A stretch of DNA of 20,760 bases from Candidatus Heimdallarchaeota archaeon. Its GTDB lineage: Archaea; Asgardarchaeota; Heimdallarchaeia; Heimdallarchaeales; Heimdallarchaeaceae. The position numbers and the translations under genes are program-made. Position 1 is the stretch's first letter. Every line of letters starts with the position of its first letter. The notes beneath the pieces were generated by a model. That model did not search any database. It was not told where the DNA came from and saw only the letters and a program-made list of their open reading frames with translations. Positions 2,917 through 20,440 of this stretch are shown here, in pieces. The stretch is taken from contig DAOVER010000049.1 in assembly GCA_030668875.1 (NCBI GenBank), positions 1 through 20,760 on the forward strand, given 5' to 3'.

Positions 2917-3050
2917 TATTCCTCTACTCGATTTCAGCTAGTTATTGAATATCAGTTACGAATAGCAATTAGCCCTTCACATATTATTCTTTAAATTGGT
3001 TTATAAATATAGCACAAAAAAAGCAATTTATTCAAGTGAATCACTAAATA

Positions 3051-3057
3051 TTTATAA
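3051..3057 (+). promoter_or_regulatory. Archaeal TATA box, probably a leaderless transcript of the wHTH gene
   Basis: TTTATAA at canonical spacing from ATG 3080. Confidence 0.55.
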
Positions 3058-3079
3058 GAAAAATTCGCTAAATCTAGTT

Positions 3080-3505
3080 ATGCATCAGGACAGTCTCAAA
3101 GAGATATCGATATTAGAACAAAAATCAGCTCTACAAATACTTGTCCAATTGCTAGAATATGGGGGAACGATGCAGATAAGTTTCCTAGAACAATCTGTCG
3201 ATGGCGGTCAATCTGCTGTTGAAACAGCAATTAGAAAACTCTCTTCTATAAAGATAGTTCAAGATTACCAAATGTACGAAAAGGGTCCAAGGTACATCAT
3301 GTTGACTAGTAAAGGTGAGAGTATAGCTTATGATCTAATTTCTATTCAAGAAAAAATAAATCAAGAATATCCTGATGAGAAAGATGTTAAGGATAAAATA
3401 GATTTAGTAGTACAACTATCAGAGAAACAAAAAAAGCATGGTTTGGCAAGAAAAACCATTTATCTGAAAGATGAAAGAAGAAAGATACTAACAAAAGAGA
3501 AGTAA
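3080..3505 (+). CDS. Winged helix-turn-helix transcription regulator (HxlR/MarR-like), divergent from the ATPase operon
   Basis: ALQILVQLL...SAVETAIRKLSSIKIV...RYIMLTSKGESIA. The ATG at 3080 is preferred over the track's TTG at 2996 because TTTATAA (3051-3057) lies ~26 nt upstream. Confidence 0.8.
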   Translation: MHQDSLKEISILEQKSALQILVQLLEYGGTMQISFLEQSVDGGQSAVETAIRKLSSIKIVQDYQMYEKGPRYIMLTSKGESIAYDLISIQEKINQEYPDEKDVKDKIDLVVQLSEKQKKHGLARKTIYLKDERRKILTKEK

Positions 3506-4415: not shown

Positions 4416-5042
4416 CTATTTTCTTAGTTTACCGTATTGATCTAATCTTAACCCACATTTTGGACAAAATAATTCCTTTGGAGGAGTGATTTTTCTACAA
4501 ACAGGACACACTCGTTTTTGTTCTGCTAGGTTTTTCACCTTAACTCGTGGTACAGTTTTAGTGCTTCTATTTAATATCATTGTAATTATAGGAAAAATCA
4601 CTGTTGCTGCTATACTCAAGAGAATGGGTAGTATCGTTACAGCATGAACTTTGATTATGCTTCCAAAATAATTTCCTTCATGAATCCGAATAAGTAAATA
4701 AGTGGCATCCTTAAACCACACTTTACTATGCTTCCCTATACTGAAAATTTTCTCCCATACCACCTCTCCTCCAGAAGTAGAAGTTAATGCCGTTATCTTT
4801 AGTTTAGCTGTTGATGAAGAACCTGGAAGATCATTTCGTATTTCAACTACTATCTTATAAGCTGCTGGATTTGCCAAATTTGGAGAGATTGTTGTCCCCA
4901 TTGTATAGCCATCTAATCGGTAATCCCTAATTCCTGAGACATAAGTCAGCAATACTTTTGATTGTGCGAAAGAAGTATAACAACCATAACTTAAAGCCCC
5001 ACCGATTAAAATGATTAAAAAATAAGTAGTTCCTTTCTTCAT
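4416..5042 (-). CDS. Membrane-anchored protein with C-terminal zinc ribbon
   Basis: N-terminal signal/TM segment, second TM (ILPILLSIAATVIFPIITMIL), CPVC-x10-CPKC at the C-terminus, GGAG RBS. Confidence 0.82.
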   Translation of the reverse strand: MKKGTTYFLIILIGGALSYGCYTSFAQSKVLLTYVSGIRDYRLDGYTMGTTISPNLANPAAYKIVVEIRNDLPGSSSTAKLKITALTSTSGGEVVWEKIFSIGKHSKVWFKDATYLLIRIHEGNYFGSIIKVHAVTILPILLSIAATVIFPIITMILNRSTKTVPRVKVKNLAEQKRVCPVCRKITPPKELFCPKCGLRLDQYGKLRK

Positions 5043-5067: not shown

Positions 5068-5631
5068 TTAATGTTCTTTTTCCTCTTCCTTTGGTTCTAC
5101 ACAGAAGAAACCATTTGCAAATATCTTTTTGAAATTATGAGTTTCCAATTCTTCCTTTTTAATATTGTATATTCTGAAATTATAAGGCTCTTTTCAAAAG
5201 CAACACCCATCTAATATAATAACTGCTTCTTGAGCTTTCATTCCTTTCTTAACATTTTTTTCTATCCACAAACTTATCTCTTCAAAATCTTGACCATTTT
5301 TTGGATAGACTATTGCTAATACTATCTTTGATTTGGAATTAAGGAGTTTATTTTCTAATGTCTCCTGAATTATTATCTCTTTATCTGTTACATTCTCGTG
5401 TTCCACATGAAGTATCATTTCATCTTTCTTTTGTTCTAGTGAATAATCCCACCAAGTAAGATCGTATCTTTCTAGTTCATACTGCACAAGATGACCTAAC
5501 ATCCTACCTAATCTATCAAAGTAGTCAAGGATTCTATGAGTCCAAGTAGTATTAGTATTATCCCCCACTAACTGAAAAGAATGATAATTTTCAGTAAAGC
5601 CATATATTAAATCGTTGCTATCAATTGTCAT
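5068..5631 (-). pseudogene. PD-(D/E)xK-like nuclease-fold gene interrupted by an in-frame TGA at 5194-5196
   Basis: YDLTWW...LHVEHEN resembles a D...ExE nuclease core. After the TGA the frame stays open for 41 codons (KEPYNFRIYNIKK...EKEH) to TAA 5068-5070, just before the RBS of the next gene. Confidence 0.6.
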
Positions 5632-5645
5632 AAGTAATAACCATC

Positions 5646-6249
5646 TTATTTGTTCTTCATCATCCTTTTTGTTTCTTTCTCTGAGTAGGCATTGAACAAG
5701 TCTCTGTAGATAGCTTTCTGAAACTTCTTCTTATTCTCTCTTTCCACCGTATCTCTGCTGACTATCTGTTTGTAAAGAATAATTTCATCATAGAGTTTGA
5801 CCAATCCTTCTTTTTCACATCTCTTTTCCAATAAGGTTAATTTCTGAAACATTACCTTGTTACTCACTCCTTGAAGATAGGAGTAGATATATGCAAACGC
5901 TTCTGCCATGATTTTCAACGAACTGTTCTCTATCTGTTCTATCTTCCCCAGATACATCTCCATTATCTGCATGAATTCCCCATAATTTCCTGTGGAAAGC
6001 AAGAGTTTAGCGATTAGTAGATTAGCAAAGATGTTCTCCGTCTTCTCCTCTTCTTTGCTGTTGTTCAGCCTCTCCATCGTCTTTTCTACTTTCTTTCTAT
6101 ATCCTCCTGAACTGTGAGAATTGATCTCTATTAAGTAATCTATGACTTTCCTCAAACGTTCCTCGATATATTTCTCATCTTTCTCTATTACACCTTCCAG
6201 TGTCTCTACTTTTATCCCAGAATAAACGATTAATTCTCCCAAGATTTGC
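5646..6249 (-). pseudogene. 5'-truncated paralogous copy of the C-terminal third of the TPR-like gene at 9155-10876
   Basis: Gap-free alignment to 9179-9770. Homology stops abruptly at 6249. No ATG in the upstream frame before TAA at 6336-6338. Confidence 0.85.
5658..6249. repeat. Direct repeat copy A (592 bp, ~89% identical to copy B)
   Basis: Constant offset of 3521 nt to copy B, no indels, ~66 mismatches by hand count. Confidence 0.95.
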
Positions 6250-9209: not shown

Positions 9210-10876
9210 GCGTTAAACAAGTCTCTGTAGATAGCTCTTTGAAACTTCTTCTTATTTTCTCTTTCAACTGTATCTCTACTAACTATTTGTTTGTAAAGGA
9301 TAATCTCATCATAGAGTTTTACTAAACCTTCTTGTTGACATTTCTTTTCCAATGCAGTTAGTTTCTGAAAGATTACCTTGTTACTCACTCCTTGCAGATA
9401 GGAGTAGATATATGCAAATGCTTCCGCCATTATTCTTAACGAACTATTTTCTATCTGTTCTATCTTCCCCAGATACATCTCCATTATTTGCATGAACTCA
9501 CCATAATTTCCTGTGGAAAGCAAGAGTTTAGCGATTAAGAGATTAGCAAAGATATTCTCCGTTTTATCTTCTTCTTTTCCATTAACGAAATTTTCCATCG
9601 TCTTCTCTACTTTCTTTCTATATCCTCCTGAACTATGAGAATTAATCTCTATCAAATAGTCTATGACATTCTTCAAACGTTTCTCGATATATTTCTCATC
9701 TTTCTCTATTATGGCTTCCAGTGTCTCTACTTTTATCCCAGAATAAACGAGTAATTCTCCCAAGATTTGCGAACTTACAGTTAGATTCTTGGTAAATGGG
9801 ATCAATGAGAGAATACTTTCCTCATTTGTCATCATCATTAGTCCTTTATGAACAGAGTAATAGAGCAAAGAGATGTTTAAGGAAGTGATAAGGAAAGAGT
9901 ATAAATCTTTGGTCAACATCATTTTGGTTCTACGATGATTAACCACTGATTGAAGATCTATTATGGTTTCTTTTATTCCTTCAAAATCCCCTCTCTCAGC
10001 ATAGATTCTTGCCAGTAGTTGGAGACTACCAATATAAAAGAAAACATTTTGTCCTAGATGCACTCTGTCTTTATTCAACTCTTTGGAAGTTAAGAGATGC
10101 ATCTCAGCTTGAGTTCTAAAAGAATTGTAGAGAAACAGGTTGCCTAACATGTTGTGTGCTAATGCTCGACTATCATCTGAAAGAGTAGAAAAGAGGTGTG
10201 TTTGACTTCTACATTCGACGAGTATTTCACTCATTTTTTCCTCTTGATTAGTCCTCGAATAGATTTTAGTCAAATGTAGACAAGTTTTGAAGAGAGGGAC
10301 CATCATTTTTTCCTCAATAAAGTATTTTCTACATTCTTCAAAATGTTCTGCAACTGTAAAATCTCCTTCTTCAGTGAACACACCATAAGCAAAAGAAAAT
10401 AGTATGGCATGATAATTCATTTTTGATGGGTCAGGGAGTGTATTCATTATCTCCATAGCTTTCTCTCTTGCTTCAATTGCTTCATCGTAATTTTTCTTCA
10501 GTTTCTCTACTTGCCAGATGAGGATTAAAGCTAGAGCCTTCCCCTCTGGAAAACTGTTCTGATCAGCTAATCGTTCCATACGAGAGATAATACCTTCGAC
10601 TTCAGGTAGAAGATCAATCCTACCAAAAAATAGTCCTTGTTTAGTATAAAGTAGATCAATATGAGAACCATAATCACCTAATTCTTGGCTTTTCTCAATA
10701 GTTTTATTGATAATCTCTAAAGCTTCTTTCTCTTCCCAATTCCTGTAACTCTTTCTAATTTCCAGAACAATTTCATGTAATTCTTCTACTGTATTTATCT
10801 CTTCTACCTGTTCTCCCAAAGGGTGAGAATAGTTTTTTACTGCTAAACTTTTTTCCACTTCGTACACCTTTACCAT
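9155..10876 (-). CDS. All-helical TPR-like protein
   Basis: 573-aa ORF with TPR-like helical pairs (LAHNMLGNLFLY, LQLLARIYAERGDFE). An alternative GTG start at 10858 has a GGTG RBS. BRE/TATA CTAAAG-ATA-TTTATA lies at 10944-10930. Confidence 0.8.
   Translation of the reverse strand: MVKVYEVEKSLAVKNYSHPLGEQVEEINTVEELHEIVLEIRKSYRNWEEKEALEIINKTIEKSQELGDYGSHIDLLYTKQGLFFGRIDLLPEVEGIISRMERLADQNSFPEGKALALILIWQVEKLKKNYDEAIEAREKAMEIMNTLPDPSKMNYHAILFSFAYGVFTEEGDFTVAEHFEECRKYFIEEKMMVPLFKTCLHLTKIYSRTNQEEKMSEILVECRSQTHLFSTLSDDSRALAHNMLGNLFLYNSFRTQAEMHLLTSKELNKDRVHLGQNVFFYIGSLQLLARIYAERGDFEGIKETIIDLQSVVNHRRTKMMLTKDLYSFLITSLNISLLYYSVHKGLMMMTNEESILSLIPFTKNLTVSSQILGELLVYSGIKVETLEAIIEKDEKYIEKRLKNVIDYLIEINSHSSGGYRKKVEKTMENFVNGKEEDKTENIFANLLIAKLLLSTGNYGEFMQIMEMYLGKIEQIENSSLRIMAEAFAYIYSYLQGVSNKVIFQKLTALEKKCQQEGLVKLYDEIILYKQIVSRDTVERENKKKFQRAIYRDLFNAYSEKETKRIMLKVAKPE
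9179..9770. repeat. Direct repeat copy B (592 bp)
   Basis: See copy A; this copy lies inside the intact TPR-like gene. Confidence 0.95.
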
Positions 10877-10881
10877 GTCTA

Positions 10882-10910
10882 AAAGTGGGATTATTGAACA
10901 AAAAGGGTAA
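10882..10910 (-). promoter_or_regulatory. Repeated leader motif, copy 1 (TTACCCTTTTTGTTCAATAATCCCACTTT)
   Basis: 26/29 identical to 17542-17570. Lies between the TATA box and the start codon of the TPR-like gene. Confidence 0.75.
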
Positions 10911-11833: not shown

Positions 11834-14800
11834 TCAATCATTGGATACCCAAGGTTCTACTGTATCTTCTTGAATTTTATTAATTTCTTCTTTGCTAAAA
11901 GCAAAAAGCTCTAATGCCAAGGAATCAATTTCTCTTTCTACTTTTTCTTTTGTTGCTTTATTTTCTTTGACCGTCATAAAGAATTTCTCAATTTTTTCTA
12001 TAAAGAACTTAGCATCTTTTTCAGTTTTTGGTATTTTGAGTACAAGTAAATCTTCTATTGGTGTTTCTGATTCTTCCCATTTTCTTCCTTTTAATATCAA
12101 AAATATGCCTTTTGCAATAATATCTGAAGTGCATGTAATTTCACCTTGTCCTACTTTTACAACTTTCTCTTCTAATAAAAGAGAGGGCTCACTTATTGAA
12201 TCGAGATTTGTTATTTGTGAAATTAATGCAGATTGCACCATTGGTTGTAAGTCGATTTGATTTAAAGTTTGATTGGTGTGTTGATAAATGTCAATCTCTT
12301 CTTCATGAGATAATCTTATCTTTACAAGTTCTGTAATTCTCGATACAAGTTTATTTTGATCTTCTGTTTGTGGTATTAAAATAGGGATATCATCAAGAAT
12401 GCTTCCATCTAATTGATAGTATCCTCCTCGCTTAACTGCACCTTTGTGTCTAAAATAGTAAGAGAATGCAGATGAATTTAATAATCCGAGAATATAAAAT
12501 CTTGAAATTCCTAAACTTAAAAGATTTTTTTCATTAAGTATAATGCCATAAACCCCTGCTGTTCCTCCAACATAAGCATACCCTCCCTTATTAAGGGTGA
12601 AATTTGGATAATTGTTTAAAGCAGGAGTTATAATAATTCCTTTTTTGTAGATTTGGAACTCTCTTGGTCGAGTAAGACGATGCCATTGAACTGTGTCTCC
12701 AAAAGATTGTGTTCTAGAAATCTTTCGTGAACTGATATCATTTTTATGTGCTGATAGATATTCATAGCATTTGGGGTAGTTTCTCCTTATATCATCAATG
12801 GGGATGACATTTGTTTTAGTTCCATCTTGCTTATAATAAAAAAGAACATACTTATCATAATCTATTTTTGAAAAACGTTTTACATTCCTGCCGTGAATAA
12901 TTGGTTTTAATAGTTTTTGTTCTATTTCAATTTCAGTAAAATTTCTTCTTTTGATTTCTATTAATGGAATAATTCTTCTAAGTCCTTTCTTGTCTGTAGT
13001 TGAACCTTCTTTTCCTATAAAAACTGAATCATTTCCAGTTAATATTCCTTGTTTTGATTCTCCTCCAATAGAACTCAGTGTTTTAGAACAGCTATTTACT
13101 ATCTTCGATATAATGGGATTATCAATAGATGTTTCATATTTCCATTTTTCTTTACTTTTAAGATTCTTTTGTGATAACTTTAATGTGGTGATCTCTGGAA
13201 CCACAGTTTTATTTCGAAGAATCTCAAGAATATTAAGTATTTCTTCTTTCATATAATTATAATTGACTTCATTTTCATTTCTCTCTATCTCATTCAAGCA
13301 TTTTTCTACTATGATAATGGACGTATAATTAGTAGCATCAAGAAATTGTCCGAATTTTTGAAAATCTGTTATTTCTAAGATTTTAGTTTTCTTCAAGAAT
13401 TCCTCTTTAATTCCTTCTCCTGCCTTCTTAATTAGAAATTGATCGGATACTATATAGCCAAGCTTCCCTCCTGCTTTCAACAGATCTAAGCCAAGTTTCA
13501 AAAAAAGAATATAAAGATCTGTTCTACCTATAGCTACATTAGGGTAATTTGCCTTGTAGATTGAGTAGAGCTCATTTGGTATAGAAGTTAAATGGACATA
13601 TGGAGGGTTTCCTATGACATAGTCATATTTTGTTTCCTTTAATTTTGTAATTTGTTTTTGTTCATCAGCATAAATTTTAACTCTTTCATTTATTCTAAAA
13701 AAATCATCCAGTGTTTTCTTTGCATTTTTTGAAATAGGTCCTATTAGTGAATCAGTATGAAATATATTGATTCTTCTAAATTTAAATGATGGTTCATCTT
13801 TTGCAACTTTTATTAGGTCTATTAATTGAAATAGAATATTCATTTCAGCTATATGGCAGGCAAAAGGATTTATGTCCCATCCAACTAAATTATCAATTAC
13901 CACTGTTAAAATTTCATTGGCTTCACTTGGACTAAGTTCGTTAATTGATTTTTTTCCAAAGAGATCTAAAAACGATTTGACTAATCTCTTTGTTGCTTGT
14001 ATGAGAAAACCTCCACTACCACAAGCTGGATCTAAAATTTTTTTTCCTCTAATGTTTTGACCTTCATATCCAATAGAATCCAATATGTAGTTTATAACCT
14101 GAACTGGTGTATAAAACTCACCTAGTTCTTTTCTTTCTTCTTTTGGTAGATATTTCTCGTAAAGATTGCCTAATATATCTTGGTTTACATCTGAAAAATC
14201 AAATTGATTTAAAATCCATAACATTCTATTGAGAAGTCTATCTAACTCTCCATCGCCTGCAATATACCAGTCCAATATTCCTGGTTCGTAGAAGTGGCTA
14301 TAAAGATCTTTCGCATTATTAAATGCAAAATTAATTACACTTTTGTATTTCTGTTTTTTTTCTGTAATAAACTCTCGGAGAGTTTCAATTCCTCCATTTG
14401 ATAAATGTGGTTTAATTAGTTCCTTATCTTCTGATATTCTTATGAAAAGAATTTTATTTAGTAGAACATATATTGTCTCCTTGCAAAATAATATTTTGTT
14501 AGCTTCAGAACTGTCTTTTACTCTTCCTGAATAAATTTTCCATGCTTCAAAACCAAAATCCTTGTATTGAATGTAATCTGAATTAAGTTTCATTAAAGAA
14601 CGTTCGAGTAGTGCTAATTCTTCACCACCAGAACTCTGATTCTTTTGACTTTTTATGCTCTCTCTTATCGTGGAATACTCTTGGTATCTTTTATAATAGA
14701 TATCAAAAGATCTAAGAGCATATTCCATTAATATTTCGTTAATCATTCTATTAGTTTGAAAAAGCAGATGTTCAAATCCCTCTGGTTCAGAAATCTTTAC

Positions 14801-15352
14801 CTTATGATAAAGTATCCCAAAATCCTCATAAATTTCACTATCATATATAATGTACTTTCTAAGCTTGTAAATAAATAATAATTGTTGTATTTCTTTACTT
14901 GTTAATATGTTCTCTATTTTCCCTCCCTTTTCTAATTTTTTCTTCAGCTCATCTAAACTGAATTTTACTCTTAGTATAATCTTTTTACTTGTGGAGTCAA
15001 TTTCCCATACCCATACAAAATTGATGTTTGTTCCAACCAGATACCTTGTTGCCGATTTTGCATATCTTTTAAGTTGTTCTAGTATTTTTTTTTCGTTTTC
15101 CTTATTCAATGCTTTTGTTTCAACAATTATTACTGGATTTTTTTCTTTATCATAGATTACAACATCACAAAAATTCTGTTCAACTGAATATTCCTCGTCA
15201 GTATATTTCCATAAACCTGCTATTATCTCATTTATCCATCTATATCTACAATCCATTTCAGAATCTGTAGGAGTTGTTGAATTATAGACTTTCATTAGAC
15301 TCTTAAAAACCACTATTTCATTAGAGACAATTTTCTTTGCCAATTGAACCAC
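11834..15352 (-). CDS. Type IIG restriction-modification enzyme (fused endonuclease, N6-adenine methyltransferase and TaqI_C-like recognition domain)
   Basis: N-terminal CDVVIY...IIVETKA nuclease motif, LGEFYTP, motif I ILDPACGSGGFL, motif IV VIGNPPY. TTTAAATA TATA-like box at 15384-15377. Confidence 0.95.
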   Translation of the reverse strand: MVQLAKKIVSNEIVVFKSLMKVYNSTTPTDSEMDCRYRWINEIIAGLWKYTDEEYSVEQNFCDVVIYDKEKNPVIIVETKALNKENEKKILEQLKRYAKSATRYLVGTNINFVWVWEIDSTSKKIILRVKFSLDELKKKLEKGGKIENILTSKEIQQLLFIYKLRKYIIYDSEIYEDFGILYHKVKISEPEGFEHLLFQTNRMINEILMEYALRSFDIYYKRYQEYSTIRESIKSQKNQSSGGEELALLERSLMKLNSDYIQYKDFGFEAWKIYSGRVKDSSEANKILFCKETIYVLLNKILFIRISEDKELIKPHLSNGGIETLREFITEKKQKYKSVINFAFNNAKDLYSHFYEPGILDWYIAGDGELDRLLNRMLWILNQFDFSDVNQDILGNLYEKYLPKEERKELGEFYTPVQVINYILDSIGYEGQNIRGKKILDPACGSGGFLIQATKRLVKSFLDLFGKKSINELSPSEANEILTVVIDNLVGWDINPFACHIAEMNILFQLIDLIKVAKDEPSFKFRRINIFHTDSLIGPISKNAKKTLDDFFRINERVKIYADEQKQITKLKETKYDYVIGNPPYVHLTSIPNELYSIYKANYPNVAIGRTDLYILFLKLGLDLLKAGGKLGYIVSDQFLIKKAGEGIKEEFLKKTKILEITDFQKFGQFLDATNYTSIIIVEKCLNEIERNENEVNYNYMKEEILNILEILRNKTVVPEITTLKLSQKNLKSKEKWKYETSIDNPIISKIVNSCSKTLSSIGGESKQGILTGNDSVFIGKEGSTTDKKGLRRIIPLIEIKRRNFTEIEIEQKLLKPIIHGRNVKRFSKIDYDKYVLFYYKQDGTKTNVIPIDDIRRNYPKCYEYLSAHKNDISSRKISRTQSFGDTVQWHRLTRPREFQIYKKGIIITPALNNYPNFTLNKGGYAYVGGTAGVYGIILNEKNLLSLGISRFYILGLLNSSAFSYYFRHKGAVKRGGYYQLDGSILDDIPILIPQTEDQNKLVSRITELVKIRLSHEEEIDIYQHTNQTLNQIDLQPMVQSALISQITNLDSISEPSLLLEEKVVKVGQGEITCTSDIIAKGIFLILKGRKWEESETPIEDLLVLKIPKTEKDAKFFIEKIEKFFMTVKENKATKEKVEREIDSLALELFAFSKEEINKIQEDTVEPWVSND

Positions 15353-15464
15353 TTCAATCCAAATATATACTTAAGATATTTAAATGAATCACATTAAATT
15401 TTTTGGGATAATAGAAGACGAAATCTAAAATTTATGTAAAAATGCTTCAAGCACCTAAAAATAT

Positions 15465-15748
15465 GAACTTTTGCTAGTATCACAGAAATGTGGTAAGAGT
15501 GTTTTAACATAAAGGTCGTGTCCATAAGACGACATAGAACTTCTAAGTAGTGTGTTGTATACTACTAGCTTAATCAAAGTCGTTCTTAAAAAGCGACAAT
15601 TGAAAAGAAACTCTTTTTCATACTCTTAAAAGATTTAGCTTAGATGGATCCATTCGTTTTTTGAGATTGACAAGTTTCAAGCATTGCCTGATTAGGATAT
15701 CTTTGCATCCAAACTTTCCTTGTAGCACTCTTTCAAGTTTTTTATTTT
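15465..15748 (+). ncRNA. Candidate structured non-coding RNA of unknown family
   Basis: No credible ORF in the interval. Nested long-range helices (15465-70/15735-40 and 15495-503/15724-32), at least five internal hairpins, a GAAA tetraloop, G-U pairs that work only on the + strand, and a 3' oligo-T tract. Confidence 0.5.
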
Positions 15749-15760
15749 GAAATATCCCTT

Positions 15761-16345
15761 TTATTCACCCATATCTATCTTTATCATCTCTTCTATTCCT
15801 AATCCTTTCCTCTTTTTATCATCTAGAAACATTCCTAATAATGTGAAAACAGGTGACTCTGTTTTCCCTGTTTCATGAATGTCAAAATACTCCTTCATAT
15901 CAAGTAATGCATCCTTAAAAGATTTAGTTTCTAAACCTGCATCTTTACATTTTAGTAAAACTTCTTTCCTTTTTTCTTCTGTTCGATAAGTATAGAAGTA
16001 AAATATTATTTTTCTTATTTTCTTCTTGGTCATCCACTTATAGTGCTCAGTCTCTTTCAGATATTTTTCAGCTAAATCAAAGAAAAACTTTGTATTTCCC
16101 CATTCTTTTGTAGCCACCTTAGTTGCTAATTCTGTTGTTACACTTACTATCAACAACTCTTCTTCATTTATGGCTAAAACATCTAAATCTCTATATCCTC
16201 GCTGTTTCTTGTTTTCCAATTTGCTCCAAAAGAATCTAGTAGTTGTAGTAATATAACCTAACATATCCAACCATATTTGAACAATTTTTTCATAAGCTTC
16301 AGGATAGCCAGAAACTGCAGGATAATCCATTATATCTTCAATCAT
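15761..16345 (-). CDS. PD-(D/E)xK restriction-endonuclease-fold protein (Mrr/Hjc-like) with atypical third motif
   Basis: EAYEKIVQIWLDMLGY...RDLDVLAI...LLIVSVTT. AGGT-rich RBS. Purine-rich BRE plus TATAAAAA at 16402-16395. Confidence 0.7.
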   Translation of the reverse strand: MIEDIMDYPAVSGYPEAYEKIVQIWLDMLGYITTTTRFFWSKLENKKQRGYRDLDVLAINEEELLIVSVTTELATKVATKEWGNTKFFFDLAEKYLKETEHYKWMTKKKIRKIIFYFYTYRTEEKRKEVLLKCKDAGLETKSFKDALLDMKEYFDIHETGKTESPVFTLLGMFLDDKKRKGLGIEEMIKIDMGE

Positions 16346-17541: not shown

Positions 17542-17570
17542 AAAGTGGGATGATTGAACAAGAAGGGTGA
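17542..17570 (-). promoter_or_regulatory. Repeated leader motif, copy 2 (TCACCCTTCTTGTTCAATCATCCCACTTT)
   Basis: 26/29 identical to copy 1; lies upstream of the RBS of 17104-17523. Confidence 0.75.
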
Positions 17571-18595: not shown

Positions 18596-20440
18596 TTAAG
18601 CTAATTTCAATAATATTAAGAAAAGTAAATTCATAAAATAAAGGGAATAATCATTAGGTAAAAGGAGTGAATGTGCGACATTGTGTCTCAGGTTATAACC
18701 ACCTTTTTCAATGAGAACAAATTTGAAGAAGAACAGATCATCTGCATTGATGATTCCTTTTAATTCTTCTTCTCTAAATAAATGGTGAATATCCTTCTCC
18801 ATTACAACATCTCTATTCCTAGGAATATAAGTAGTAGAGATATTCGAGAACTTGCACAAATCTCTAATTATACCTTCAATTTTCAGTATTAATGAATCAA
18901 TGCATAGAACGTAGTTGGGATTAAATGAATTATCTTCAAGACATTTGGTAGTATGTTCAAAATAACTTTTGAGGGAAGGTGTGAGTAATGACAACCAATT
19001 GAATTCTATTATGTGGTCATTTGCATAAGTTCTAGGTAAACTTTTTCCCAACCAGCTGTAATTCTTTAGATATTTTTCTAATACTGTGAAATTTAGCTTT
19101 TCATTTTTTAAGGCTGCAATGATTACCTCATTCAAAAATACATAGCGCATTTTAAGCTCAACCCTATAATTGCGTAATAATTCAAATTTCTTTTTTTCTT
19201 CCTTTGTGTGGAATATTTCAGCTTTATGCCCCTGACGGTCTATTAAATGAACAGGTAAAAGTTGAGAAAATATCCTCTTCTTCATATCTTGAACAGTTAT
19301 ATGTTCAACTTCATCTAATTTAGGAACAAATGATTTATCATAAATTAAAATGTTGATAATCTCTTCAGAACTCTTCTCTTTGACTAGTCTTTCTGCTACA
19401 GTTCTACAGTCTTTTTCATACATCTCTATTCCGTCTAAATAATCCTGCTTTGTTTTTTTACTAAAGGGAGGTGCAATTTCCATAAATTTTTGTTGCTTTT
19501 TCAATTGGGTAAATTGTTTTTCTAACTCCTTTACTTTTTCTTCATCTCCCGCGTCTCTGTAATTCCTTATTGCTGATTCACAGAAATCTAAAGCAAGATT
19601 AGTATTCTTTTTCTTATGATTTTGCATAAGGTTTTCATAACAAGTTGCAATCATACCTACCCAATTGATAGAACACCTTTTTAATATCGAGCTTACTTTT
19701 TTACCAATTTCAAGAATATCAATTGCAAGTATAAACTTAGCCTTTTTAGATAGAACAACTGAATATGATTCACAAAATTGATCTACACCGTCTAGATCAG
19801 TGTTTGTGAAGTTTTTCCTATCTTGAATCATTAATTCAATAAGTTTTAGTTTAATAACTGCGACTGATTCATCATTTTGCTTGTAATCTTTAACCAAACT
19901 AATGAGAACACATTTTGCTTCTTCTGTTTTATACTTAATTTGGAACGAGATTCTATAAGCGTTTATTATGACGTTGAGAATTGTTAATGTAATAAATTTC
20001 AAACCAGTTTCTTGATTATTGGAATAATATTCAGATAACCACAAATATGAATCTACAGCATCTCTTGCAAATTCTATCTCTTTCTTTGGACTTAACCATA
20101 GAATGTGTGAATAATGTGCTTTTAACATCTTATTCTTTACTGTTTTTTGTCTTTCCATCAAATATGTAAATTGCTTTTCTTCGTATCTATCCCAAGGAAT
20201 CTTTTCTTTATATTCTAGATTTCCTATTGGACAACTGTCATAAAAGAAGAAGGTTATCTCCCACTGAGCAATTTTAGATACAGTTAAATTTCCTTCTTCT
20301 TCCTTCTTATCCCTCAGAACTTTGAATAATCCAGCAATTTGCATTGTCTCTAGATGCAAAGCATTATTTTCTAATTGCTCATAAAGTTCTTCCAATTCTT
20401 GATCTTTAGGCGTGGAATAATTCTTTTTTATTTTTATCAC
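18596..20440 (-). CDS. DUF4209-like protein with C-terminal HEPN RNase motif
   Basis: C-terminal GYNLRHNVAHSLL contains R-x4-H. LILKIEGIIRDL and YLMERQK...LKAHYSHILW match recalled DUF4209/DUF7380 patterns. Confidence 0.78.
   Translation of the reverse strand: MIKIKKNYSTPKDQELEELYEQLENNALHLETMQIAGLFKVLRDKKEEEGNLTVSKIAQWEITFFFYDSCPIGNLEYKEKIPWDRYEEKQFTYLMERQKTVKNKMLKAHYSHILWLSPKKEIEFARDAVDSYLWLSEYYSNNQETGLKFITLTILNVIINAYRISFQIKYKTEEAKCVLISLVKDYKQNDESVAVIKLKLIELMIQDRKNFTNTDLDGVDQFCESYSVVLSKKAKFILAIDILEIGKKVSSILKRCSINWVGMIATCYENLMQNHKKKNTNLALDFCESAIRNYRDAGDEEKVKELEKQFTQLKKQQKFMEIAPPFSKKTKQDYLDGIEMYEKDCRTVAERLVKEKSSEEIINILIYDKSFVPKLDEVEHITVQDMKKRIFSQLLPVHLIDRQGHKAEIFHTKEEKKKFELLRNYRVELKMRYVFLNEVIIAALKNEKLNFTVLEKYLKNYSWLGKSLPRTYANDHIIEFNWLSLLTPSLKSYFEHTTKCLEDNSFNPNYVLCIDSLILKIEGIIRDLCKFSNISTTYIPRNRDVVMEKDIHHLFREEELKGIINADDLFFFKFVLIEKGGYNLRHNVAHSLLLPNDYSLYFMNLLFLILLKLA

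Follow-up and report, generated by a model that had tools for sequence, protein, structure and literature searches.

Does the spacer between two minus-strand genes of a heimdallarchaeal genome encode a large structured RNA, and what in this spacer is conserved? Asgard archaea have scarcely been explored for noncoding and regulatory elements. The Heimdallarchaeia have been reported to be the archaeal lineage phylogenetically closest to eukaryotes (PMC8813620). An initial annotation had proposed a single closed RNA of about 280 nt on the plus strand of this spacer, possibly serving as an antitoxin, guide, or scaffold or representing an orphan omega-RNA. We found that this description is accurate in detail and over-interpreted as a whole. 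The spacer holds a truncated, slightly degenerate copy of a new noncoding element, a phased-palindrome array restricted to one family, which we tentatively read as an array that is bound by a protein as DNA.

The locus and its flanking genes

The window, i.e., the whole stretch of DNA that was analyzed (20,760 nt), is the complete 20.8-kb contig (C20) of a 3.2-Mb metagenome-assembled genome with ~30% G+C, which encodes TBP. Public runs that contain the locus are marine sediment or cold-seep metagenomes, with no RNA run listed among them. The spacer under study measures 408 nt (15353 to 15760), and both of the genes that flank it are on the minus strand. The features discussed first are as follows.

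11834 to 15352, minus strand: flanking 1,172-aa type IIG restriction-modification gene (Pfam Eco57I, N6_Mtase, HSDR_N_2, and TaqI_C; PADLOC REase_MTase_IIG)
15465 to 15748, plus strand: candidate 284-nt RNA with long-range helices 15465-15470/15735-15740 and 15495-15503/15724-15732, not supported as a unit
15761 to 16345, minus strand: flanking 194-aa gene with no Pfam family and a weak PADLOC match to CARF_PDDEXK

The restriction-modification gene probably starts at the ATG at 15295 (MKVYNSTT...) rather than at the GTG at 15352; in another assembly, its product is called as 1,153 aa with the start at ATG 15295. A TATA-like TATATATTT lies near the start of this gene, at ~15362 to 15372 on the minus strand. 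The 194-aa protein may be the product of a small nuclease-fold defense or mobile gene. Its homologues make up just 15 clusters among 5.8 billion proteins, including one bacterial cluster (Neptuniibacter) and some sediment metagenome contigs. These homologues are found in other contexts (beside an Hjc/NOV_C-like gene in one case and an NYN-domain gene in another), and the spacer element is absent there. Two further contigs encode an identical 194-aa protein but are uninformative on synteny, because they are 100% identical to the window. Farther along, a 614-aa protein (18596 to 20440, minus strand) contains DUF7380 and DUF4209 and matches the PADLOC candidate defense family PDC-S39 (E = 7e-26), which supports the view that the contig is a defense island in character. 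An earlier "leader motif" at 10850 to 10910 and 17542 to 17570 was also looked at and is unrelated to the spacer element.

Folding of the 284-nt candidate

All of the helices on which the RNA had been proposed are present at the coordinates given for them, namely, GAACTT/AAGTTT, TATCACA-GAAA-TGTGGTA, and AAGAGTGTT/AGCACTCTT, as are the hairpins at 15515 to 15533, 15546 to 15566, 15579 to 15597, 15601 to 15620, and 15661 to 15680. The 284-nt candidate was folded and compared with shuffles on both strands. The plus strand reached a minimum free energy of -62.9 kcal/mol, compared with an average of -54.0 for shuffles (z = -1.88), and 9 of 200 shuffles did as well. The minus strand gave z = -0.60; folding was thus not beyond chance. 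When all non-overlapping 284-nt windows of the contig were ranked on both strands, the candidate came 8th of 144, and those that folded better were mostly coding. Uninterrupted helices of at least 9 bp (Watson-Crick plus G-U) occurred in all 60 of 60 dinucleotide shuffles, at ~7 per shuffle against 9 observed. Because such helices are common in shuffles, the long-range 9-bp helix and the terminal 6-bp helix carry no evidential weight, and the 3' partners of both lie outside the region that has homologues. The closed architecture did not withstand this comparison. The hairpins that do go beyond chance, at 15515 to 15533, 15547 to 15565, and 15579 to 15597, are phased palindromes that are conserved in other species.

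Other features of the spacer also argue against a 280-nt unit. Its proposed TATA box (TTTATGTA, 15431 to 15438) is substituted at three of eight positions (15431, 15434, and 15438) in strain X6, which is 94% identical, and the proposed RNA contains two internal T runs (T5 at 15614 to 15618 and T6 at 15656 to 15661). At gathering thresholds, the Rfam families (RNase P, SRP, omega-RNA, CRISPR-DR, riboswitches, and others) gave no match in the window (best subthreshold E, 7.8 to 10) and none at an E of ≤0.1 across ten homologous loci. Within the frames and the genome compared, the spacer shows no sign of a decayed protein gene: stop-to-stop frames are at most 56 aa, none combines a start with homology, and tblastx against the window's own genome returned only noise (E = 0.5).

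Three phased palindromes form a conserved module

The lead was that two hairpins of the window have the same stem, GTCG...CGAC, at an 11-nt interval. GTCG-N11-CGAC occurs at only five sites in the 3.2-Mb genome, two of which lie here, 64 nt apart, with GTAG/CTAC exactly midway; the three palindromes begin at 15515, 15547, and 15579, a phase of 32/32 nt. Across 24 species of the genus, GTCG-N11-CGAC sites cluster, with 2 to 4 within 100 to 350 nt and always in long ORF-free spacers. The parts of the window's copy are listed below, with a strand where one is assigned.

15456 to 15464, plus strand: TATA-like TAAAAATAT, 13 nt upstream of hairpin 0, predicted by comparison with homologues
15478 to 15498: hairpin 0, TATCACA-GAAA-TGTGGTA, overlapping the invariant block TGTGGTAAGA (15489 to 15498)
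15489 to 15612: conserved module, consisting of the TGTGGTAAGA block and three phased palindromes; collinear alignment with one indel
15515 to 15533: palindrome I, GTCGT-N9-ACGAC, near-identical to the copy in G009
15547 to 15565: palindrome II, GTAG-N11-CTAC, the same as the 9-bp hairpin 15546 to 15566 and a variant of the family's GTCG...CGAC
15579 to 15597: palindrome III, GTCGT-N9-GCGAC, within a 38-nt stretch common to G021:C147 (34/38 identical)
15601 to 15620, plus strand: weak A/U hairpin (-2.6 kcal/mol) ending in the T5 run, a possible plus-strand stop signal just past the module
15661 to 15680: hairpin E, TTGAGATT-GACA-AGTTTCAA, roughly where G021 and G041 have a further GTCG palindrome; homology weak

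Stems are 4 to 5 bp long with loops of 9 to 11 nt, and most have energies of -2.6 to -4.4 kcal/mol. The TGTGGTAAGA block is unchanged in G010 and G023b and has one change in G023a, and its pairing partner varies among members. Palindrome II aligns with GTCG...CGAC palindromes in all homologues. The spacing from TAAAAATAT to hairpin 0 equals that from TATATAAAT to the equivalent hairpin in G010 and G023a, and TAAAAATAT carries no substitution in strain X6; tRNA promoters of the window's genome are TTTAAAAA-like. The core of the spacer, from 15478 to ~15680 and securely 15489 to 15612, is the truncated copy of the element. Downstream of the module, a perfect 10-bp palindrome, ATGGATCCAT, lies at 15644 to 15653 and is destroyed by 15650 C>A in strain X6.

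Distribution and genomic context of the element

Homologues of 15489 to 15612 form a noncoding module in five other species of the genus and in a sister genus. Homologous elements are listed for G010, G023 (two copies, a and b), G009, G008, G013, and G021 and, in the sister genus, G041. The window and G010 share a collinear 129-nt alignment. BLAST found matches in 11 of the 24 genomes of the genus, with 1 to 3 in each at 71 to 94% identity; element copies are 66 to 88% identical. A covariance model built on the module (R1) gave the window 122.9 bits and detected new members with scores of 69.5 and 57.1 bits; it recovered partly decayed copies in G009 and G008 and a truncated copy in G013. The best homologue, G041:C3 from the sister genus, is collinear over ~135 nt at ~78% identity by our own count. 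It has the three palindromes in the same order as the window, with similar loops and linkers, which are ~75% conserved between the two genera (again by our own count). This homology sustains part of the initial annotation: an undescribed, conserved, hairpin-forming noncoding element with homologues and without an Rfam family is present, but a 280-nt RNA unit is not. Limited look-ups of the literature (Heimdallarchaeia noncoding RNA, aloposons, and Heimdallarchaeum repeats) found no account of the element.

The element is confined to one family. Searching for TATAAATA-N12-GTCG-N11-CGAC yielded 13 hits, spread over 6 of 29 family genomes, against one control hit; the 53 other genomes of the class had none. 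Of the two sister-genus genomes, one carries five TATA-palindrome units by pattern search. Pattern scans of genomes and metagenome contigs for the 38-nt motif returned the G021 lineage alone, plus one chance bacterial match. Searches of the window's own genome (blastn-short, nhmmer, and a genome search) found no second copy. On another contig of that genome (G000 C6:4583 to 4650), one TATA-like box with a palindrome, TTTTATGT-N12-GTCGATGAAAAGATTCGAC followed by TTGAATCGTTTTAG, lies in a 190-nt spacer of convergent genes. Many genomes of the genus have one or two palindromes near-identical to this one (GTCGAAG.....CTTCGAC).

The genes that neighbor the element are unrelated from locus to locus. 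About twenty loci were inspected, and their neighbors encode glycosidases, amidohydrolases, peptidases, a methyltransferase, an ABC ATPase, and TPR, HEAT, or LRR proteins, with single cases of a Cas1 fragment and a PD-(D/E)XK protein; no partner gene recurs among them, and no transposase or integrase lies within ~3 kb of 20 loci. Because the neighbors differ at every locus, and because homologues of the 194-aa protein are found without the element, no functional tie to the flanking nuclease-like or restriction genes is supported. At one locus (L022, G021:C147), two paralogous copies in one orientation (3015 to 3300 and 5464 to 5780) surround a 656-aa TPR gene. At another (L019, G016:C53), a short spacer holds a near-perfect inverted repeat, TCTTACCACG-N13-TGTGGTAAGA (5005 to 5042), in which the repeat arm TGTGGTAAGA is the block that, in the window, supplies the 3' arm of hairpin 0. 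In two species, a Cas1 N-terminal fragment (129 aa) with no other cas genes abuts the left end of the element (L025, G023:C39, 2578 to 2967; L027, 1785 to 2173). A CRISPR link was rejected, since this fragment by a homologue is all there is and no cas operon accompanies it. A CRISPR array or leader was likewise rejected, given a total period of 32 nt, non-identical units, and no array in a crude k-mer scan of the genome.

Anatomy of complete elements

Complete elements are ORF-free, span ~300 to 400 bp, and contain 3 to 5 palindromes of 19 bp with the form GTCG-N11-CGAC. In the module within them, the TGTGGTAAGA block precedes three 19-nt palindromes, which recur with a period of 31 to 33 nt. 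This tandem spacing, seen also in G010, G023a, G023b, G016, and G041, corresponds to approximately three turns of the DNA helix. One end carries a strongly conserved unit, GGTGAAATCGTTAC-TATAAATAG-N11-GTCGAAAG..TTCGAC-..GAACTTCTTAGAG, in which we infer that TATAAATAG is a TATA box. Of 12 sites with a TATA no more than 45 nt away, 10 have its first base exactly 20 nt ahead of the palindrome. In tRNA promoters of the window's genome, the TATA begins ~30 to 36 nt before the gene; on that spacing, the palindrome behind the TATA of the element would cover about -10 to +9 relative to the transcription start. A transcript from that promoter would then lack the 5' arm of the palindrome. Classically, archaeal operators occupy this place over the transcription start.

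The promoter-like unit of each complete element is oriented so that it reads the module in the window's minus-strand sense. A second, weaker TATA-like box lies at the opposite end and points in the plus sense; its equivalent in the window is TAAAAATAT. At both ends, TTGAATCG.TA.TATAAATAG.G precedes a hairpin, the two copies being inverted relative to each other. These inverted TATA-containing ends are absent from the window's copy, in which the conserved TATA-palindrome unit would, by position, fall inside the 194-aa gene. The same unit is also found upstream of protein-coding genes, at L040 (429 aa, with an ~100-nt leader) and L038 (646 aa). RNAalifold suggested an extended helix in which the TATA-proximal 12 nt pair with sequence beyond the palindrome, but 24 units did not reproduce it, and it was dropped.

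Variation among strains

The locus is also present, at ~94% identity, on contigs of other sediment runs. One of them, a 447-nt contig of run X6, covers 15290 to 15735 with 25 differences and one indel. By our own calculation, the spacer is 94.4% identical to X6, the restriction gene 96.1%, and the 194-aa gene 92.4%, and the module has 6 changes in 135 nt; the spacer thus evolves at about the rate of its flanks. Within 15465 to 15735 there are 14 substitutions, five of which (36%) fall at positions proposed to be paired, where ~39% of positions are paired. Substitutions thus hit paired positions as often as unpaired ones, and three of the five break pairs, a further point against the 280-nt RNA. 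These three are 15479 A>T, which costs hairpin 0 one pair in strains X4, X6, and X7; 15582 G>A in X6, which turns an arm of palindrome III into GTCA without a compensating change; and 15619 C>A in X6, which removes a G-C pair from the hairpin at 15601 to 15620. In X4 and X6, 15549 A>C and 15563 T>G form a compensatory pair that converts palindrome II into the canonical GTCG/CGAC. Each strain of the window's species has one non-canonical site.

Recognition as RNA or as DNA

Pairing was tallied over the first five stem positions of the palindromes across members, giving 135 cells in class W, 16 in class x, 12 in class c, and 7 in class u. The half-sites are near-invariant, and it is the loops, the linkers, and the fifth pair that drift. 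Covariation was not significant over seven modules: 84% of cells were paired, there were two double changes, and 53 of 500 shuffles did as well. Two compensatory double changes keep pairing: GTAG/CTAC versus GTCG/CGAC (window versus sister strains) and GTCA/TGAC in palindrome IV of G008. Template-switch correction of quasi-palindromes could yield such compensatory changes without selection. Neither the folding energy, set against shuffles, nor the covariation identifies the element as a structured noncoding RNA.

Indications of strand conflict with one another. The initial annotation had argued for the plus strand from G-U pairs, and each of the five local hairpins of the window is indeed more stable on the plus than on the minus strand. 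Across the family, the argument does not carry over: wobble-type mismatches comprise 7 G-U and 12 A-C (~11 without the misaligned rows, G013 hairpin I and window hairpin IV), with no strand bias, and the promoter-like unit favors the minus sense. In hairpin III, all six of the one-sided changes retain G-U pairing in the window's plus sense. RNAalifold, applied to six full elements over ~450 nt, gave -24.0 kcal/mol in the unit sense and -20.3 in the other, with 18 versus 8 pairs showing double changes. T5 runs are absent from the unit-sense strand of full elements. In the plus sense, T6 to T8 runs lie within 45 nt of the predicted start in G023a and G010.

The invariance of the half-sites across paralogous hairpins points to recognition of sequence and not to pairing alone. 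Together with the strict 11-nt interval, the three-turn phase, and the fixed TATA offset, it argues for recognition on DNA. Weak stems (4 to 5 bp) and a consensus energy of only -20 to -24 kcal/mol likewise count for a DNA array over a free RNA.

Competing explanations

Half-site, phase, and TATA-offset evidence weighed against hairpin evidence leads us to rank a DNA palindrome or operator array first, a family of RNA genes second, and a relic of a miniature inverted-repeat transposable element (MITE) third, although the three overlap in part. The DNA array is our preferred reading while falling somewhat short of an even chance. It proposes that the palindromes are putative binding sites for a sequence-specific protein, which we infer would act on DNA rather than on RNA. 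The palindrome behind the TATA, over the transcription start, would be a putative operator, and the phased triplet would permit proteins to bind cooperatively along one helical face. Being a phased triplet without the TATA unit, the copy in the window would then be either a decaying relic or an array of binding sites that stands on its own between two defense genes; both options are raised because the TATA unit is missing and each strain has one non-canonical site. Several observations count against a DNA array. Double changes keep pairing, as a hairpin model predicts; loops and linkers are more conserved than a pure array of binding sites needs; and ORF-free DNA with inward-facing TATA-like boxes and T runs suits small RNA genes. 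The half-site centers are 15 bp apart, i.e., 1.5 helical turns, and this distance is unusual for a simple helix-turn-helix dimer.

RNA genes are the principal alternative, with a probability that we put at little more than one in four. The family would encode small RNAs of ~130 to 400 nt whose GUCG/CGAC hairpins are recognized, and perhaps cut, by a protein; in the window, the product would be a plus-strand RNA of ~135 to 180 nt, from ~15485 to the T5 or the T6 run, or minus-strand read-through from the 194-aa gene. Conservation of the whole module between genera, beyond the half-sites, is in keeping with such genes, as are the ORF-free elements between TATA-like boxes, the compensatory changes in palindrome II and in palindrome IV of G008, the G-U pairs kept in hairpin III, the plus-strand stability of the window's hairpins, and the unit-sense strand with its lack of T5 runs and slight RNAalifold preference. 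Against them stand the nonsignificant covariation, the lack of an overall wobble bias, the contradictory strand indications, the very short stems, and stem sequences that are invariant across paralogous hairpins; moreover, the first palindrome would straddle the predicted transcription start, and G023a and G010 have T6 to T8 runs close behind the predicted plus-strand start. A bolder version, in which Asgard-specific small RNA genes with a conserved promoter converge from both ends and yield tandem 32-nt hairpins bound or cut by a putative RNA-binding protein, as a new archaeal repeat-RNA system, seems improbable to us. Somewhat under one chance in four goes to a relic of a low-copy, non-autonomous, MITE-like element, in which the TATA units would be the ends, the hairpins would serve a transposase or recombinase in trans, and the truncated copy in the window would have no present function. 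Its patchy spread (11 of 24 genomes, and five units in one genome of the sister genus), never syntenic contexts, inverted ends, decayed (G008 and G009) and truncated (G013 and window) copies, high similarity between genera for a spacer, and a module no better conserved within the species than its flanks all fit this origin. Yet the copy number is far below that of typical MITEs, the copies are diverged and not near-identical, the inspected ends show no target-site duplication, no autonomous transposase or integrase partner was seen near the 20 loci, and the end unit doubles as the upstream region of ordinary genes.

The closed 280-nt RNA is now largely refuted, and we give it only a very slight chance. 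The better fold of the plus strand, an oligo-T run at 15738 to 15748, and the defense island setting speak for it; these are outweighed by a z-score ordinary for the contig, by chance-expected helices outside the conserved part, by the internal T runs, the mutated TATA box, and the broken pairs described above, and by the occurrence of 194-aa homologues without such a spacer and of homologous elements without such a protein. As for the roles suggested for it, a TnpB/IscB omega-RNA relic or an IS200/IS605 end is rejected, as the contig region contains no tnpB or iscB gene and no Rfam match. A type III (ToxI-like) antitoxin is rejected too, its defining features being missing in the window and in the homologues: the three 32-nt units differ in loops and linkers, no co-oriented gene lies downstream in the window, and the neighbors of homologues are heterogeneous. 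For the window itself the practical message is negative: the spacer warrants annotation neither as a structured RNA of 280 nt nor as a partner of the neighboring defense genes. As for the element, which has no counterpart in Rfam, a dispersed cassette, restricted to the family, of a near-invariant promoter-like unit and phased palindromes would give access to the control of transcription in Heimdallarchaeia, or to a small-RNA or mobile-element system of theirs.

Comparison with known systems

Tandem short hairpins with a period of ~32 nt and stems that look recognized by sequence recall CsrB/RsmZ sponges, ToxI arrays, and Cas6-cut CRISPR hairpins. The element differs from these in its non-identical units and in having no co-oriented downstream toxin or cas gene, no GGA-type loop, and no spacers of CRISPR length. 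Clustered, extragenic, imperfect palindromes are also typical of bacterial REP/BIME sequences, but here the copies are fewer by orders of magnitude, the genome is archaeal, and no RAYT-like gene turned up. With MITEs and "mobile promoter" cassettes, the element shares its short, ORF-free form, inverted ends, patchy non-syntenic occurrence, and truncated or decayed copies, whereas 1 to 5 diverged copies per genome, without target-site duplication or an autonomous partner, set it apart.

Regularly spaced palindromic boxes also occur in archaeal promoter-operators. Sulfolobus Ss-LrpB, for instance, has three boxes of 15 bp, and repressor sites may lie over the transcription start. We know of no described archaeal regulator that fits the half-sites of the element (GTCG/CGAC, with centers 15 bp apart). 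Unlike archaeal operators, the promoters of the element face ORF-free DNA, no regulator gene is adjacent, and the whole 300- to 400-bp element is conserved and dispersed. What the element has in common with these operators is conserved half-site palindromes, three of them in helical phase and one at a fixed, short distance downstream of a putative TATA.
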